This document shows, piece by piece, positions 56,321-64,000 of a stretch of 64,000 nt of DNA; the stretch's first letter is position 1; each line of letters begins with the position of its first letter. The position numbers and the translations under genes were made by a program. The DNA lies in contig CAVUVW010000011.1 in NCBI GenBank assembly GCA_963745035.1, positions 160,001 to 224,000 on the forward strand. Reading direction: 5' to 3'. The notes beneath the pieces were generated by a model. The model was given only the letters and a program-made list of their open reading frames with translations. It was not told the DNA's origin and did no database searches. Source of the DNA: an uncultured delta proteobacterium (lineage in GTDB: Bacteria > Desulfobacterota > Binatia > UBA9968).

Positions 56321-56490
56321 CTCGCGCAAAGACGCAAAGGCGCCAAGATAACCCAATTGTCCTTTCGACCGAAGGGAGAAATCTTTCTTAGATCCCTCAC
56401 ACTCGCTCGGATAACGGGGCTCGGCCGTCACTTGCCGACTTGGCGAAGAAAAGTCGAGAATCCGAGAAGAGTATTCTGGCGCAAAGACGC
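56321..56490. repeat. Composite element: CGCAAAG-periodic arms with a nested REP-like palindrome
   Basis: ctcgcgcaaagacgcaaaggcgccaag (56321) encloses gtcctttcgaccgaagggagaaatct...agatccctcacactcgctcggataac, then cttgccgacttggcg and another gcgcaaagacgc. Confidence 0.65.
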
Positions 56491-56497
56491 GAATCAA

Positions 56498-56678: not shown

Positions 56679-59600
56679 ATGCCTCCTACTAAGCGACTAC
56701 CATCAAAAAAGCGCAGTCCCGCTCCTAAGGGGGCCAACGCTAAGCTTGTTCGCGAGAACAAGGAGTTACGGCGGGAGCGTGACGAGAGCGCAGAGCAGCA
56801 GGCCGCGACCAGCGAAATTCTGCGCATGATCGCGCGCGCGCCGGCGGATCTTCAGTCGGTGATGGATACGATTGCCGAGAGTGCTGCTCGGTTGTGTGAT
56901 GCCAAGGATGCTGTGATTTTTCGCGTTGAGGGTGATGTTCAGCAACGGGTGGCGGTATATGGAGCAATGCCAACGGCAACAGCTATTGGAATCCGGGGCA
57001 TTACTCGTGGGACTCCCGTGGGCCGAGCTATCATCGATCGGGAGACGATTCACATCCATGACATCGCGGCAGAGATTGAAACAGAGTTCCCAGAATATCG
57101 GACTATCCAAAAGGCTACCGGCATTAGAACTGCGCTGGCCACACCGCTTATGCGCGACGGTGTGCCGATTGGCGTCATTAACATTCGCCGCATGGAAGTG
57201 CGCCCGTTTACAGACAAGCAAATCAAGCTACTCGAGACCTTCGCTGATCAAGCGGTAATCGCGATCGAGAACGCCCGGCTTATTCATGAACAACAGGCGC
57301 GCAATCGGCAACTGACGGAGACTTTGGAACAGCAGACCGCCACCGGCGAGGTGCTGGAGGTGATCAGCAGTTCACCGACCGACCTTGAACCGGTCTTTCA
57401 AACGATCTTGGCGAACGTCACCCGATTGTGCGAATCCAACATCGCACACGTAGCTCTCTACGACGGCGAAGCGCTAGATGTCGTCGCTCAGCACGGCGCC
57501 ACAAGGGAATTTGCCGAATTCCTCAAGGGCAAACGAAACCCCAGTCGTGAGACTCCGACTCGACTGGCGGCGCTGGAGCGGAGGACTGTTCATGTGTCCG
57601 ATCTGCTGACGGATCCCGAGTTCTCACCCCCGCAGATCGAGGTATACCAAAGGGAGAATATCCGGACGGTATTGTCCGTTCCAATGCTACGCGAAGGCGC
57701 CCTTGTCGGAGTCATGACCACGTGGCGGCGCGAAGTGAGAGCCTTCACGGACAAGCAGATAGCCTTGGTGCAAACCTTTGCCGCACAGGCAGTCATCGCC
57801 ATCGAAAACGTGCGGCTGTTCCAAGAACTCAAGGAATCGTTGGAGCAGCAGACAGCGACGAGTGAGATCCTGGGCGTGATCGCCAGTTCACCGACGGATC
57901 TTAAGCCGGTGCTGGACGCTGTTGCTCGAGAGCGCAGCACGGTTGTGCGAAGCGAACGATGCGCAAATTCGTCGTACTCGACGGTGAAGGTCATCCGAGT
58001 TGCAGCATGTTATGGCCAAATACCGCATGTGGAATTGGGAGTAGACAAGGGCATCAGTCGGGAGATCGTCAATGGCCGCGCGATTATCGAGCGCAGGACC
58101 GTTCACGTCCACGACCTAGCGACAGAAATGGAGAACGAGTTCCCAGCCTCGAGAGTATTCCAGGAACGCTTTGGAACGCGCACCGTCCTTGCTACGCCGC
58201 TACTGCGAGAGGGCGTTCCCATAGGAGTGATTCATGATTCGCCGAACCGAAGTCCAGCCCTTCTCGGACAAGCAAATCAAGCTACTCAAAACTTTCGCCG
58301 CTCAGGCAGTGATCGCCATCGAGAACGTCCGGCTGTTCAAGGAGATCCAGGAGCGCAATGCGGAATTGCGCGAGGCGCTGGAGCATCAGACCGCAACGTC
58401 CGAGGTGCTAGGCATAATCAGCCGCTCGCCGACGGACGTGCAGCCGGTCCTCGACGCGATCGTCGAGAGCGCGCGCGAAGGTTTGCGGGATCGATGACGT
58501 GGTGCTGGGGTTGCGCGAGCAGGAGATGATGAACGCGCGGGCTCATTTTGGCACATACCATACCGGCCGCGATGAGATCAGCGTTGATGACGCCACGGTA
58601 TAACTGGATGCGCGAGCACGGCACGCTCCACGTTCCCGACGTCCGCGCCGCGCAGAACGATTTTCCAACGTTGGGTGTTGTCGGGGGTTTTCGCACCTTC
58701 TTGGCTGCTCCCCTTCGTCAGCAGGGGGAACTCATTGGATTACTGGGCGCACGTCGCACCGAGGTGCGCCCCTTCACCCCGGCGCAGATCAGGCTGCTCG
58801 AGACCTTCGCCGACCAGGCGGTCATCGCCATCGAAAACGTTCGACTATTCCAAGAACTCAAGGAATCTTTGGAACAGCAAACTGCGACGAGTGAAATCTT
58901 AGGCGTCATCGCCAGCTCGCCGACGGATATCCAGCCAGTGTTGGACACGGTCGCGGAAAATGCCGCCCGGCTATGCGAGGCGACTGATGCGCAGATTCGC
59001 CTCGTGGAAGGCGACGGCCATCGATTGGTGGCGTCATTTGGAACTCTCCCAGCCCCGGAGTTTCGAACCACAAGCGTAGAAAACCCATTCAGCCGCGCGA
59101 TTCTTACGCGAGAAACAATACATATTCACGATCTTCAGGAAGGGTCTGGTTATGATTCATCCTCTGGAACACGGACCCTTCTAAGCACACCGATGCTCCG
59201 AGAGGGGACGCCGATAGGTCTGATCAATATCAGGCGCACGGAAGTTCGTCCTTTCTCCGACCGACAGATCAACTTCTTGAAACGTTCGCAGGCAAGCCGT
59301 CATCGCGATCGAGAACGTGCGGCTGTTCAAGGAAATCCAGGAGCGCAACGCGGAATTGCGCGAGGCGCTGGAGCATCAGACCGCGACGGCCGAGGTGCTT
59401 AGCATCATCAGCCGCTCGCCGACGGACGTGCAGCCTGTGCTCGATGCGATCGTCCAGAGCGCGGCAAAGGTTTGCGGGATCCATGATGTGGTACTGCGAT
59501 TGCGGGGGCGCGACACGATGAAAGTGCGGGCGCATTTTGGGTCCATCCCAACTGGTCGTCCGGAGATCAGCGTGGATGAGCCGCAGTATCGCTGGATCGA

Positions 59601-62600
59601 CGAGCACGGCGCGCTTCATATTCCCGACGTTCGCGCGCAGAACGAATTCCCTTCACTGGGTTCCACCGGCTTCGTACCTATTTGGTTGTTCCACTTCTCC
59701 AGCAAGGAGAATTCATTGGGGTACTTGGCCGCGCGTCGCAACGAAGTGCGTCCCTTCACTCCCGCGCAGATCAAACTTCTTGAGACATTTGCTGATCAGG
59801 CAGTCATCGCACTCGAAAACGTGCGGTTGTTCAACGAACTCAAAGAATCTTTGGAGCAGCAAACCGCCACGAGTGAAATCTTAGGCGTCATCGCCAGCTC
59901 GCCGACGGACATTCAGCCGGTGCTGGATGCGGTGGCTGAGAGTGCGGCTCGCTTGTGCGAAGCGCCAGATGCCGTGATCTTCCGCCGAGATGAGGGTGTT
60001 ACTCGACCTGCGGCGCGGTATGGATCGATTCCATTGGCCCGGCCTATTGGAGAAGCTTTTCCTGACACGAGTGGATCGCCTCCTGGAAGAGCGATGATCG
60101 ATCGGAAAACGATTCATGTTCACGACATTGCTGCGGAACTCGATCCGAATATCCGGACTCCAAGCCCCGTCACATAACTACCGGTTCGCGCACGATACTG
60201 GCTACTCCATTGCTGCGTGAAGGCGTGTCAGCAGGCGCAATCATGATCCGCCGCACCGAAGTTCGCCCTTTCACTGATAAACAGATCAAACTTCTTGAAA
60301 CATTCGCTAGCCAAGCGGTCATCGCCATCGAGAACGTCCGGTTATTCCAGGAACTCCAACAACGCAATCGAGATCTTACTGAGGCGCTGGAGCAGCAGAC
60401 GGCCACGAGTGAGGTGCTCGGGTCATCAGCGGCTCGCCGACCGACGTGCAGCCGGTCTTCGATGCGATCGTGCAAAGCGCCACCAGGCTGTGCGAAGCAT
60501 CCTTCGGCTCGGCACACCGCTTCGAAGACGGCTTGGTCACGTTCGATGCGCAGCACGGTATGACGCCCGAACAGTTCAAAATCGGCAAAGAGCGATTTCC
60601 AACACCTCCGTCCCGAGAAACTGCTGTAGGTCGAGCGATCATGAGTCGAGAGGTTAGACATATTCACGACATCGAAGCTGATCCTGAATATGTCTTCATC
60701 CCTCATCAACGGCAGCTCAGCTATCGCACCGTGCTGGCTGTGCCACTGTTAAAGGAGGGCAATCCGATCGGTGCGCTTGGCATGTGGAGACGGGAAGTAA
60801 AGCCGTTCACAGAAAAGCAGATCGCTCTCATTGAAACATTTGCCGACCAGGCGGTCATCGCCATCGAGAACGTGCGGCTGTTCAAAGAGCTAGAGGAACG
60901 TAATCGCCAGATTACCGAAGCTGGAGCAGCAGACGGCAACGAGTGAGATCTTGCGTGTGATCGCGAGCTCGCCGACGGATATTCAGCCCGTACTGGATGT
61001 AGTCGCGGAGAATGCGGCGCGGCTTTGTGAGGCGAGTGACGCTCTGATTTATCGGCAGGCGGACGGCCGGGCCCACTTGGCAGCCCGATTTGGTGATATT
61101 CCTGTTGCGCCTGACCCGCTGCCCATCAGCCGTGGCTTCGTAGGCGGGCGGGCAATGGTGGATCGAAAAACGATTCATGTGCACGATGTCTCCGTGGAGA
61201 ACGAGACAGAGTACCCGGAGGCCAGGCATCTGCAACGGATCGCGGGAGCCCGTACCGTTCTGGGCACGCCTCTGCTTCGCCAGGGCGAACCCATCGGCTC
61301 GATCGTGATTCGCAGGCAGGAGGTTCGGCCTTTTACGGAGAAACACATAAAGCTCCTGGAAACGTTCGCCGACCAAGCTGTGATCGCGATCGAGAACGTC
61401 CGGCTGTTCAAAGAACTCGATACTCGCAATCGCCAACTCACCGAGGCGCTGGAACAGCAGACGGCGACGAGCGAGATATTGCGCGTGATCGCCAGCTCGC
61501 CAACGGATATCCAGCCGGTGTTGGATGTGATGGCCGAAAATGCCGCGAGGCTGTGTGACGCCACGGATGCCGCGATCATTACGAATTGAGGGCGACTCAT
61601 ACGGATCGTGGCGAATTATGGCAACATGCCGATATCCGGCGCGATCGAGTCTCGACCACTTGATTCGTGGTCGTTATTCCGGCTAGAGCGATGATCGACC
61701 GGCAAATGATACATATTCATGACATTGAGGCGTGCCGGAAGACAGATGGATTTCCCGAAGCCTCGGCTCTCGTTAGAAGTCTCGGCATCCGCACGGTTCT
61801 GGCAGCGCCCCTGCTTCGTGAAGGAACTGCGATCGGCGCGATTCTGATTCGTCGCAACAACGGTTCGACCTTTTAGCGAAAAGCAGATCGCGCTTCTAAG
61901 AACCTTCGCCGACCAGGCCGTGATTGCCATCGAGAACGTGCGGCTGTTCCAAGAGTTGCAGGAACGGACGCGCGAATTGGTGGAGTCCATGGAGGAAATG
62001 AAGGCACTGAGCGAGGTCGGGCAAGCAGTAAGCTCGACCCTCGATCTTGAAACTGTGCTGGAAACCATCGTCGCGCGGGCCGTCGAACTGTCGGGGACCG
62101 ATTGCGGCGTTATTTACGAATATGACGAGGCGGCCCAGGAGTTTAATTTGAGGGCGAGCCACCACATGGAAGCCGAGGCAGTTGAAGTGCTTAGGACGGC
62201 GCGCATCCGTCTCGGGGAAGGCGCAACCGGGCAAGCGGCGAGCACGCGCGCGCCGGTGCAGATCCTGGATACGTCCGAAGAGCAGCAACGAGCGGTCTCA
62301 AGGGTAAGACCCGTACTGAATCGATTGGGTTACCGCTCACTACTCACGGTGCCGATCCTGCGCGAGCAGCAGATCATGGGTGGACTGACGCGTGTGGCGG
62401 CGGCGGGTTGGGGAGTTTGAACCGGAGGTGGTTAAGCTCCTGCAAACTTTCGCGACGCAGTCGGCTCTGGCGATCCACAACGCGCGGCTGTTCCGCGAGA
62501 TCGAAGAAAAGGGCCGGGAGATCGAGGCGGCCAACCGGCACAAGTCGGAATTTCTCGCCAACGTGTCGCATGAGCTGCGCACGCCGCTCAACGCGATCAT

Positions 62601-63219
62601 CGGCTTTTCGGAAGTATTGCAGGAGAGATTGTTCGGCGAGTTGAACGAGAAGCAAGCCGAATATACCGACGACATTCTGTCCTCCGGGCGCCATTTGCTG
62701 TCGCTGATCAACGACATTCTGGATCTATCCAAAATCGAAGCGGGGCGCATGGAGTTGGAGGTGACGACGTTTTATCTGCCGGACGCCATCGAGAACGCGC
62801 TCCTGCTCGTGCGCGAGCGCGCCAGCCGGCACGGCATCAAGCTCGATCGCGCCATCGACGACCGGCTCGGGGACTTCACCGGCGACGAGCGGAAGGTCAA
62901 ACAGATTCTCGTCAACATTCTCTCCAATGCGGTCAAGTTCACGCCGGAGGGCGGGCAGGTCAAAGTCGATGCACATTTGGGCGACCACAGCGCGATCATT
63001 TCGATTTCCGACAGCGGCATCGGCATTGCCAAGGAGGATCAAGAAGCGATCTTCGAAGAATTCCGGCAAGTCGGCAGCAACTACGCCCACAAGCGCGAAG
63101 GCACGGGTCTGGGGCTCACGCTGACGAAGCGCTTTGTCGAAATGCACGGCGGCAAAATTTGGGTCGAGAGCGAAGTCGGCAAAGGCAGCACGTTCACTTT
63201 CACGCTGCCGATCGGATAA
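56679..63219 (+). CDS. Giant multi-GAF sensor histidine kinase 3 (~11 GAF), many frameshifts
   Basis: Same modules; [34 protein letters not shown], ends FTFTLPIG. Confidence 0.88.
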
Positions 63220-63223
63220 GAAA

Positions 63224-63327
63224 ATTATCTCGCAAAGGCGCAAAGGCGCTAAGTTAAAGGAGGTGGGAGATGAAATTTGTCTGCGTTTGTTTTTCTAAAC
63301 TTTGCGTCTTGGCGACTTAGCGAGAGA
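63224..63327. repeat. CGCAAAGG-periodic inverted-repeat element, empty copy
   Basis: attatctcgcaaaggcgcaaaggcgctaagtt ... tttctaaactttgcgtcttggcgacttagcgagaga. Confidence 0.85.
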
Positions 63328-63348
63328 TCTCCGGATCCGGATCGGAGT

Positions 63349-63795
63349 ATTATCTCGCAAACGCAAAGGCGCTAAGTTATGACGGAGAATGATATCGGAA
63401 GAATCGTTGTCGATGCAGCGATTGCAGTACATCGGGAGCTTGGGCCGGGTTTGCTCGAAAGCGTGTACGAAGTCATTATGGCCTACGAATTAGGACGACG
63501 TGATCTCTCAGTGAGACGGCAGGTTCCGATACCGATCCACTACAAACAGATGATATTCGAAGAGGCGTTCCGCGCCGACTTGGTGGTCGAAGACAAGATT
63601 ATCATAGAGCTAAAATCAATTGAGCAAGTCAGCGAGGCCCACAAGAAACAGCTCCTGACTTATCTGCGGCTAACAGGCTGTAAACTGGGATTCCTTCTTA
63701 ACTTTGGTGAGGCGCTGATGAAGCGGGGCATAACGCGCACTGCAAACGGAATCGAGGATTTCTAAACTTTGCGTCTTTGCGCCTTTGCGAGAGAA
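63349..63795 (+). mobile_element. Putative GxxExxY cassette bounded by periodic inverted repeats
   Basis: Left arm 63349-63378 abuts the ATG; right arm 63759-63795 contains the TAA; mobility is inferred, not shown. Confidence 0.5.
63379..63765 (+). CDS. GxxExxY protein (PD-(D/E)XK nuclease superfamily)
   Basis: VHRELGPGLLESVYE, RQVPIPIHY, FRADLVVEDKIIIELKS, QLLTYLRLTG, GFLLNFG. Confidence 0.95.
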   Translation: MTENDIGRIVVDAAIAVHRELGPGLLESVYEVIMAYELGRRDLSVRRQVPIPIHYKQMIFEEAFRADLVVEDKIIIELKSIEQVSEAHKKQLLTYLRLTGCKLGFLLNFGEALMKRGITRTANGIEDF

Positions 63796-63809
63796 AATCC
63801 GAAAATCCT

Positions 63810-64000
63810 ATGGCTAATGAACTGATTTTGATCGTCGAGGATAATGAAAAGAACCGGAAGCTTGCCCGGGATGTACTCCAGGTCAAGGGTTATAGGACCA
63901 TCGAAAGCGAAACGGCGGAGGAAGGGCTTAAACTCATTGTAGAGAAAGGTCCGGACCTCATTCTTATGGACATCCAACTGCCGGGCATGGATGGCATCAC
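63810..64000 (+). CDS. Response regulator receiver (DivK-like), 3' truncated by window edge
   Basis: MANELILIVEDNEKNRKLARDVLQVKGY...PDLILMDIQLPGMDGIT. Confidence 0.92.
   Translation, partial: MANELILIVEDNEKNRKLARDVLQVKGYRTIESETAEEGLKLIVEKGPDLILMDIQLPGMDGI

Follow-up and report, generated by a model that had tools for sequence, protein, structure and literature searches.

Periodic heptamer arms around a GxxExxY nuclease gene and beside it: a probable selfish hairpin cassette between a histidine kinase and a response regulator gene

When a small nuclease gene is found between a histidine kinase gene and a response regulator gene, closed in at its start and its stop codon by inverted tandem repeats which stand there a second time, a few nucleotides upstream, around a short loop that holds no gene, the question arises whether repeats and gene form one element and, if so, how such an element spreads. 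The case considered here comes from an uncultured delta proteobacterium (Desulfobacterota; Binatia; UBA9968; GenBank assembly GCA_963745035.1), namely from positions 160,001 to 224,000 of contig CAVUVW010000011.1, and these 64,000 nucleotides as a whole are called the window, in which positions count from its first letter. The gene encodes a protein of the GxxExxY family. The explanation that we favour, and rate somewhat above a toss-up, is that the region represents two copies of one hairpin element inserted between kinase and regulator gene, one of them with the GxxExxY gene as its loop, and that they belong to a family of selfish cassettes whose own nuclease acts on the arms and whose derivatives resemble MITEs (transposable elements of miniature size with inverted repeats) or the hairpin-forming doublets (REPINs) of repetitive extragenic palindromic (REP) sequences.

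The arms are built from a core of 7 nt, CGCAAAG (variants: CGCTAAG, CGCCAAG), that recurs with a period of 8 nt, and the four of them (Table 1) can pair in two ways, either as two adjacent hairpins or nested, the arm at 63759-63795 finding a partner in 63350-63378 or in 63225-63255. The outer inverted repeat, 63225-63255 with 63765-63795, measures 31 nt and is 90% complementary; in the predicted minimum-energy fold the outer-left and far-right arms form the closing stem, with the inner-right and inner-left arms paired inside it, and the RNA fold of the 591-nt region reaches z = -4.1, none of 100 shuffles being as stable. Both right arms are direct repeats of one another (the twin's arm and 63759-63794 share 92% identity over 36 nt). 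Loops akin to the one at 63256-63291 are present at the same kinase-regulator junction in congeners, where linkers of the 63328-63349 type are also found again between tandem units; this linker resembles the leader preceding the regulator gene (direct repeat of 27 nt, 81%, spacing 125). The AAGG in the left arm 63350-63378, 9-10 nt before the ATG, is a possible ribosome-binding site. A preliminary description of the locus had stated that the left arm abuts the ATG at 63379, that the right arm is inverted relative to it and takes in the stop codon, that an empty twin encloses some 36 nt of filler, that all this lies between a kinase and its regulator and that the gene is a GxxExxY gene of PD-(D/E)XK type, and each of these statements was recovered by the repeat search, the domain matches on either side and in the gene itself, and the fold model. 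The periodic inverted structure it gave to the arms likewise stands, to which can be added the 8-nt period of the 7-nt core and the shortness of the inner left arm. What it took for a degenerate copy at 56321 is a member of the same family and not a hairpin copy: it is a solo left arm, for which a partner arm was looked for and none found, and a second partial array lies beside it near 56479-56495.

Whether gene and arms belong together can be judged from other bacteria. A framing score of at least 12 was taken as a framing inverted repeat and a score of at least 18 as a stricter level, and the loci came from a public collection, with one genome per species, that was searched with an alignment of 41 diverse family members; 601 of 603 candidate stretches were confirmed, the best 80 of these 601 were used, and 77 had enough flank (from Desulfobacterota, Planctomycetota, Verrucomicrobiota, Bacteroidota, Cyanobacteria, Acidobacteriota, Chloroflexota, Chlamydiota and Alphaproteobacteria). 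Among these 77 loci, 46 reach the lower level and 35 the stricter one, against a single case at the lower level among 130 neighbouring open reading frames (ORFs) of the same loci. Permuted pairs of upstream and downstream flanks reach it in 27 of 229 cases, more often than the control ORFs do, since a single motif, C-R-C-R-R-A-G, is common to the arms across phyla; it appears as CGCAAAG, CGCAGAG, CACAAAG, CACAGAG or CACGAAG, with CGCAACG as a near variant. The heptamers reach a density of 1.36 per 100 nt upstream of the gene, compared with 0.08 in the background, and follow each other at 8 nt in 82 cases and at 9 nt in 34, the spacing being longer in Flavobacteria. At the genus level (20 congeners and one genome of the same order), 14 of 28 loci score at least 12, and heptamer arrays can be made out by eye on at least one printed flank in 24 of the 28; the unpublished genome G005 is one among many in the genus-level counts, and no statement rests on it alone. 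The gene and its heptamer arms are one unit, conserved across phyla. Moreover, the arms follow the gene and not the host: the commonest hairpin flavour in the genome to which the window belongs (G000) is TGGAGTR, with 225 arms, and still the arms of its GxxExxY genes are CGCAAAG or CGCAGAG ones.

The number of arms, too, goes with the gene. Of 201 genomes drawn evenly from the phylum (144 genera), 73 have the gene; it is present in 34 of the 37 genomes with at least three arms and in 39 of the 164 others (odds ratio 36). When two arms are subtracted for each gene match, a surplus of at least three is left in 21 genomes with the gene and in three without it (odds ratio 17), so that surplus arms, too, are tied to the presence of the gene. 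Within the genus, the CRCRRAG x3 pattern yields between 1 and 279 arms among 24 congeners, as compared with 0-2 for the reversed-pattern control, and none in any of 11 genomes of a sister genus without the gene. The number of intact genes, by our own count, correlates with that of CRCRRAG arms at a rho of 0.62 (n = 25) and with that of TGGAGTR arms at 0.36; genome size is not tracked by the CRCRRAG arms (rho 0.17). The flavour that dominates among the gene-less copies of G219 and G223 equals that of a GxxExxY cassette resident there.

In G000 itself, a genome of 7.43 Mb in 28 contigs that was scanned for arms with blastn-short and Hamming matching, an idealised array of three CGCAAAGG units has 25 matches at three mismatches or fewer, and five shuffled units have none. 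By our own reading of the scan, the matches occupy roughly 20 mostly intergenic places and several are convergent pairs 60-250 nt apart; 16 arms are counted at one mismatch at most. The cassettes of this genome comprise one that is filled and intact, two that are filled and broken, and a remainder without gene. At all three GxxExxY loci, periodic inverted arms frame the start and the stop; in the broken pair, one of which is interrupted by TAG and the other by a frame change, they are of CGCAAAG-like and CGCAGAG/CGCGGAG flavour. An Rfam search assigned the hairpins to no family, the sole match being mir-627 with 23 bits against a gathering score of 86.

Comparison of orthologous sites reveals considerable turnover. 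At the kinase-regulator junction, G000 has one gene-less unit followed by the filled one, whilst G007 has at least three tandem gene-less units before the filled unit and G024 a gene interrupted by TAA and then a gene-less unit. In G023, a shortened unit precedes the full gene and a gene-less unit; it runs from the left arm through the ATG into the first 8-9 codons, beyond which the sequence continues at the outer end of a right arm, and this makes it an internal-deletion derivative of a filled copy. In G003 (locus L027), the corresponding junction is occupied by a different GxxExxY cassette, with CACGAAG arms and the outer ends TTCACC...GGTGAA, which suggests either that one cassette replaced another or that a single site was targeted repeatedly. 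A further kinase-regulator junction, paralogous to this one, is filled in G018 and gene-less, with nested hairpins, in G000. There, at C14:112421-112671, outer CGCAAAG arms surround two complete CGCAGAG hairpins (TCACCGCAGAG...CTCCGCGGTGA) and no gene, which is a case of element-in-element nesting. A second orthologous intergenic site could be anchored in 19 of 21 congeners; its spacer ranges from 61 nt, without a hairpin, in G013 to 315 nt, and the hairpins it carries are CGCAAAG, CACGAAG or GTTCAA ones depending on the species. The region around C14:641651 is not syntenic in congeners, so that no site comparison is possible there. Decay is seen in relatives as well: 7 of 58 match rows contain in-frame stops, and six loci appear as two adjacent match rows each, the G000 copy lying in two frames and the other five being read in this way from the row coordinates. 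At the level of DNA, gene-less copies are seen to originate, to become nested, to form tandem duplicates and to multiply.

Table 1. Features of the cassette region and its neighbours (positions in the window).
Feature	Position	Strand	Details
Left arm, filled cassette	63350..63378	+	about 2.5 heptamer units; abuts ATG at 63379
GxxExxY gene, 128 aa, PD-(D/E)XK fold	63379..63765	+	TIGR04256 E 1.7e-42; PF13366 E 7.8e-42; stop TAA 63763-63765
Right arm, filled cassette	63759..63795	+	CTTTGCG t CTTTGCG c CTTTGCG AGAGA; overlaps TAA stop
Left arm, gene-less twin hairpin	63225..63255	+	CGCAAAG g CGCAAAG g CGCTAAG, then TT; 8-nt spacing; 1 mismatch against ideal array
Loop of gene-less twin, 36 nt	63256..63291	+	last bases TTTCTAAAC repeat the 3' end of the GxxExxY ORF with its stop codon
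Right arm, gene-less twin	63292..63327	+	CTTTGCG t CTTGGCG a CTTAGCG AGAGA
Linker between both units	63328..63349	+	small palindrome CTCCGGATCCGGATCGGAG; hairpin 63329-63347
Solo degenerate left arm, same family	56321..56347	+	CGCAAAG a CGCAAAG g CGCCAAG (CGCAAAGaCGCAAAGgCGCCAAG)
Histidine kinase gene, 3' part	62392..63219	+	HisKA 8.6e-26, HATPase_c 9.5e-33 (Pfam); stop TAA 63217-63219
Response regulator gene, start	63810..64000	+	Response_reg 5.2e-14 (Pfam); extends beyond window

The protein itself is a clear member of its family, with 144.5 bits for TIGR04256 (cut-off 35) and 142.8 bits for PF13366 (PDDEXK_3; cut-off 22), and its GxxExxY motif reads GPGLLESVYE at residues 22-31. G22, L25, E27, D67 and K79 are invariant among the 41 diverse members and Y30 and E77 are at least 90% conserved; with the PD-(D/E)XK signature of E27, D67 and E77-x-K79 intact, the nuclease looks functional as judged from its residues. 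An AlphaFold2 model (predicted local distance difference test, pLDDT, 96) has a restriction-endonuclease-like alpha/beta fold, for which the structural matches by VIA-align are generic (3ijm, Z 8.4; BpuSI nuclease domain, Z 8.3; Cas4, Z 7.7; Hjc, Z 6.3). Foldseek returned nothing at E <= 1e-3 and a sequence search of the PDB no match, and since the Foldseek E-values all exceed 1e-3, it is the fold class alone that is supported; a homodimer prediction with two copies scored 0.00, which is evidence neither way. The family is very large (19,911 representatives at 50% clustering, for matches at E <= 1e-3), and the only functional entry found for PDDEXK_3 besides incidental mentions, in the part of Steczkiewicz 2012 that lists it, gives the function as 'Unknown'.

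As to the way in which such a cassette might spread, the nuclease would recognise the heptamer arrays, whether these belong to its own element or to gene-less copies, and cut there, whereupon host repair or replication would copy or move the element, following a logic like that of REPINs and their REP-associated tyrosine transposases (RAYTs), or of homing, with another class of enzyme. We regard recognition and cutting of the arrays, with copying by host repair or replication, as an even bet. Its place inside an operon could be tolerated for a different reason. No promoter-like site is predicted in 62900-64000, and an RNase III gene is present in G000. By analogy with intervening sequences (IVSs) of rRNA, the promoterless cassette would be read through from the host operon, and its arms could pair as a double-stranded RNA stem of at least 30 bp cleavable by RNase III; such cleavage would uncouple the cassette from its neighbours, so that insertion inside operons would become tolerable. 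We place the cassette among a known kind, that of selfish hairpin elements with an associated gene, and see a fair chance that its mobility mechanism is new. A wider generalisation, namely that GxxExxY proteins are the enzymes of unnamed pan-bacterial mobile or homing hairpin cassettes, each of them reading and cutting a heptamer 'address' (C-R-C-R-R-A-G and variants) and thereby spreading its cassette along with the derivatives that lack the gene, is tentative, and we hold it possible rather than probable.

A number of facts weigh against a cassette driven by its own nuclease. None of the six kinase-regulator junctions examined is element-free, and the window copy is therefore old and syntenic; at least four congeners share it in synteny, an argument against its having moved here recently. 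No clear target-site duplication is seen at this junction or at the second orthologous site: GAAAAT is present at both sides of the composite in the window, and there is no consistent duplication at other copies or at the orthologous site. Among the 77 loci from different phyla, 13 have no heptamers, and in 10 the arms are inverted relative to the gene or the gene lies between complete hairpins (about half of these 10 sit between two complete hairpins, and the others are truly inverted), whilst two of four GxxExxY genes examined in G219 carry periodic arms of non-CRCRRAG type, with the cores GGAACCCA and GGAAAAAT. By the strict pattern, 39 of the 73 gene-bearing genomes have fewer than three arms; conversely, three genomes have at least three arms and no gene (arms without gene occur in G066 and G086), and G178 combines 58 arms with only a weak gene-fragment match (E 1.2e-8); G066, G086 and G178 are genuine exceptions. 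The p-values of such genome counts are overstated as well, because related genomes are not independent. A wobble test on 38 stems found 30 G.T against 36 A.C mismatches and hence no RNA-strand signature, a result that does not support selection on the RNA stem and that speaks against a purely RNA-based role. Finally, host functions must be invoked, because a PD-(D/E)XK nuclease of 128 aa cannot itself join strands. Of the selfish or mobile unit with MITE-like copies proposed in the preliminary description, the general part finds support in the dispersal of the arms, the deletion derivative, the turnover of cassettes and the enrichment of abutting inverted repeats around homologues, whereas for the copy in the window the element-free allele that it looked for did not turn up and synteny prevails.

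Two loci with arms in the inverted orientation, L110 and L113 from metagenome-assembled genomes of Bacteroidota, have by eye a 2Fe-2S/NuoG-like ORF starting just downstream, and may represent the same operon-internal site in two lineages.

Hairpins with 8-nt periodicity are by no means limited to the GxxExxY flavours in G000, where other families exist, above all TGGAGTRN and also GTTCAANN. The TGGAGTR arms, counted at one mismatch or less, number 6-353 in all 24 congeners and 0 in 16 other genomes of the same order; examples lie at C17:292316-292393, C6:68101-68180 and C19:100039-100115. Loops in this family measure 8-40 nt, and no cargo gene was found. Seemingly 'filled' TGGAGTR pairs with loops of about 1 kb were rejected, being ordinary genes between separate hairpins. 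A four-helix-bundle family (TIGR02436, '23S rRNA IVS protein') has 18 matches in G000, one of them at C11:224346-224666, about 350 nt beyond the end of the window, and 11 of the 18 fall by our own count into a cluster of 23 kb (C13:1773819-1796930). Most of the 14 four-helix-bundle genes whose flanks were examined are framed by periodic inverted arrays, the cores of which differ (TAGGCANN, GTTCAANN, AGTGAGNT, TTTCGATN, AAGGATAN and GGTCGAGG). According to the passage on it in PMC10053308, PF05635 has a homologue in Avd, a protein of diversity-generating retroelements.

These other hairpins also count against the nuclease-driven cassette, since TGGAGTR hairpins far outnumber the CGCAAAG ones and have no GxxExxY partner, and four-helix-bundle genes occupy periodic hairpins of diverse flavours; hairpins of this sort can therefore be made or moved by some general mechanism that does not depend on the gene. 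In the rival that survives best, rather unlikely in our estimation and still to be reckoned with, hairpins are made or moved by machinery of that type (host replication or repair, or another enzyme) and small genes, such as the GxxExxY and four-helix-bundle ones, merely settle or are captured in their loops, the nuclease then serving something unrelated, e.g., defence or RNA turnover. The partnerless abundance of GTTCAA as well as TGGAGTR hairpins fits this model, as do the GxxExxY genes that lie between complete hairpins and not inside one, the three genomes with arms and no gene, and G178 with its many arms and a gene fragment alone. It fits poorly with the fact that GxxExxY genes of different phyla are framed by one and the same CRCRRAG heptamer, regardless of what other hairpins the host possesses, and that surplus arms are 17-fold enriched, in terms of the odds ratio, in gene-bearing genomes. 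Nor would it account for the dominant gene-less flavour being that of the resident cassette in G219, in G223 and in this genus, or for arms that abut start and stop codons and leave almost no spare loop. A RAYT-like mobiliser was rejected as a candidate, as the five Y1_Tnp matches of G000 are without CRCRRAG, TGGAGTR or GTTCAA arms; the only tandem array within 900 nt of them is a GTTGCCT repeat with a 7-nt period beside the C13 copy.

The arms might instead be a domesticated RNA module, that is, an element of the kinase-regulator operon for processing by RNase III or for stability, the cassette being kept for the sake of regulation. The order of kinase, cassette and regulator is found in at least four congeners and at the paralogous junction, and a strong predicted stem, no promoter of its own, the RNase III gene of the host and the precedent of the 23S IVS would all suit such a role. 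We nevertheless think it improbable: in other phyla the contexts are unrelated (e.g., the two Bacteroidota loci before a 2Fe-2S/NuoG-like ORF, by eye), junction content varies among congeners up to broken genes and a different cassette, the stems have no G.U excess, and arm copy number goes from 1 to 279 between congeners. The sequences from the four sequencing runs that were mapped on the region are contigs and hence provide no RNA ends. Two contigs from RNA libraries overlap the gene (63494-63797 and 63459-63609), which gives no proof of transcription and no ends. The arms attract contigs from many other organisms, for instance with a depth of about 1459 at the right arm in run X7, compared with about 5 in the gene. 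Contig joints that skip about 513 nt were rejected as deletions of this gene, as they carry 16-40 other letters and therefore stem from gene-less hairpins of other organisms. In runs X3, X7 and X15 (soil and rhizosphere metagenomes and one metatranscriptome library; region 62800-64000), very many contigs match the arms alone and have other loops, and CGCAAAG hairpins are therefore abundant in soil communities.

Tandem repeats of this kind have also been read as binding sites. Geobacter metallireducens has 48 paired sites with four tandem octanucleotide repeats on opposite strands, interpreted as IHF/HU sites in the passage describing them (Aklujkar et al. 2009, PMC2700814), and 70-75 convergent pairs of GGGAATC repeats are given for Xanthomonas in the corresponding passage of Rehm et al. 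2015 (PMC4692102). By extension, the arms in the window could be binding arrays for a nucleoid or global regulatory protein, with the gene's position incidental. This we consider very improbable, for it would explain neither the exact framing of one gene family at start and stop across phyla nor the deletion derivatives, the nesting and the many flavours that coexist in one genome. Weaker still is sheer coincidence, i.e., a GxxExxY gene landing in a pre-existing palindromic repeat or insertion hot spot: that the intergenic site is a hairpin hot spot, with several tandem units in G007, would agree with it, and it is hardly credible and already contradicted by the cross-phylum enrichment, the same framing recurring in three of three G000 loci and 46 of 77 loci across phyla against 1 of 130 control ORFs.

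If the selfish hairpin cassette is compared with systems that are already known, the closest match in architecture is the IVS of 23S rRNA. The IVS of Coxiella, as set out in the relevant sections of Warrier et al. 2016 (PMC4990558), is 428 nt long, a 28-bp stem arises from its terminal inverted repeats, and its loop contains a four-helix-bundle (S23p) ORF with three tandem heptamers, GACAGAT, directly upstream; cleavage of the stem by RNase III takes place at the first repeat, decay of the ORF is under way, and the mode of movement is described there as unknown. Judging from these sections, the IVSs of Coxiella and Leptospira share with the cassette a stem of about 28-31 bp made of terminal inverted repeats, a small ORF in the loop, heptamers before the ORF and frequent decay of the ORF, and the four-helix-bundle genes of G000 sit in the same kind of periodic hairpins. 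In contrast, the cassette lies between protein-coding genes and not in helix 25 or 45 of 23S rRNA, its ORF belongs to PF13366 and not to PF05635, and its gene-less copies are dispersed. No similarity to 23S rRNA was found at any of 109 GxxExxY loci (L005-L113), and the 23S gene of G000 is itself without a periodic array; from its intergenic site and the lack of 23S proximity, the cassette is therefore IVS-like in build and not an rRNA IVS.

The likeness to REP/RAYT systems that had been pointed out earlier holds as an analogy, although the ORF-bearing IVS resembles the cassette still more closely. In both cases, inverted copies of a repeat flank a gene of low copy number, and the repeat is otherwise scattered as intergenic hairpin doublets and essentially confined to gene-bearing genomes. 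A REP, however, is a single repeat with a conserved 5' tetranucleotide, whereas the arms here come as tandem heptamer arrays in a variety of flavours, the loop is filled exactly by the gene, and the enzyme is of PD-(D/E)XK type in place of an HUH/Y1 (IS200/IS605-like) transposase. MITEs with an autonomous parent are similarly short, have terminal inverted repeats, occur in many copies with bursts in copy number, and include internal-deletion derivatives such as the one in G023; they differ in that no target-site duplication can be defined for the cassette and that its protein is not a known transposase. A further comparison is with free-standing PD-(D/E)XK homing endonucleases such as I-Ssp6803I. 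The small nuclease gene, and a spread that could rest on cutting sites that lack the gene and repairing them from a gene-bearing copy, would be common features, as opposed to the absence of any sequence or close structural match and a presumed target that is a dispersed repeat instead of a unique allele. Finally, the Geobacter and Xanthomonas repeats are likewise intergenic, multi-copy inverted pairs of tandem 7-8-nt repeats of unexplained function, and the cited passages link them to neither GxxExxY nor any other encoded protein, reading them as regulator sites or G-quadruplexes. A link between gene and arms is not described in the literature searched, the scope of which excluded subscription journals and bioRxiv supplements; the supplements of PMC2700814 on genes beside the repeats may bear on priority.

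The near-universal housing of its genes in hairpins with heptamer arrays provides the very large PF13366/GxxExxY family with a concrete and testable substrate hypothesis. This also joins three things that have stood unexplained, i.e., intergenic tandem inverted repeats of 7-8 nt, ORF-bearing rRNA intervening sequences, and the sporadic genes for small nucleases and four-helix-bundle proteins, and suggests a partnership of REPIN/RAYT type in which the enzyme is of another class. Were GxxExxY proteins indeed the enzymes of mobile hairpin cassettes, this would be a new mode of moving DNA, with a minimal PD-(D/E)XK nuclease and repeat-array ends, and the inverted tandem heptamers and octamers that have long been a puzzle in many genomes would be accounted for, as would, perhaps, the way in which rRNA intervening sequences with an ORF originated. 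Should heptamer arrays be what the nuclease reads, different arm flavours could go with different specificities, which would be of interest both to mobile-element biology and to enzyme engineering.

Two further observations concern sequences outside the cassette. Upstream of the kinase core, window positions 58548-62420 contain at least six tandem, near-repeated GAF-like modules with a recurring peptide; they are distributed among several overlapping ORFs that differ in frame, a pattern that suggests either one very long multi-GAF kinase with frame changes or a problem in the assembly of the repeats. Elsewhere in G000, at C21:144247-145963, arms of the CGCCAAGG type at 144247 and 144419 on the plus strand and at 145941 on the minus strand surround, without abutting it, an ORF of 396 aa (144662-145852) with the TIR-like start MNRIFISYRSSD.

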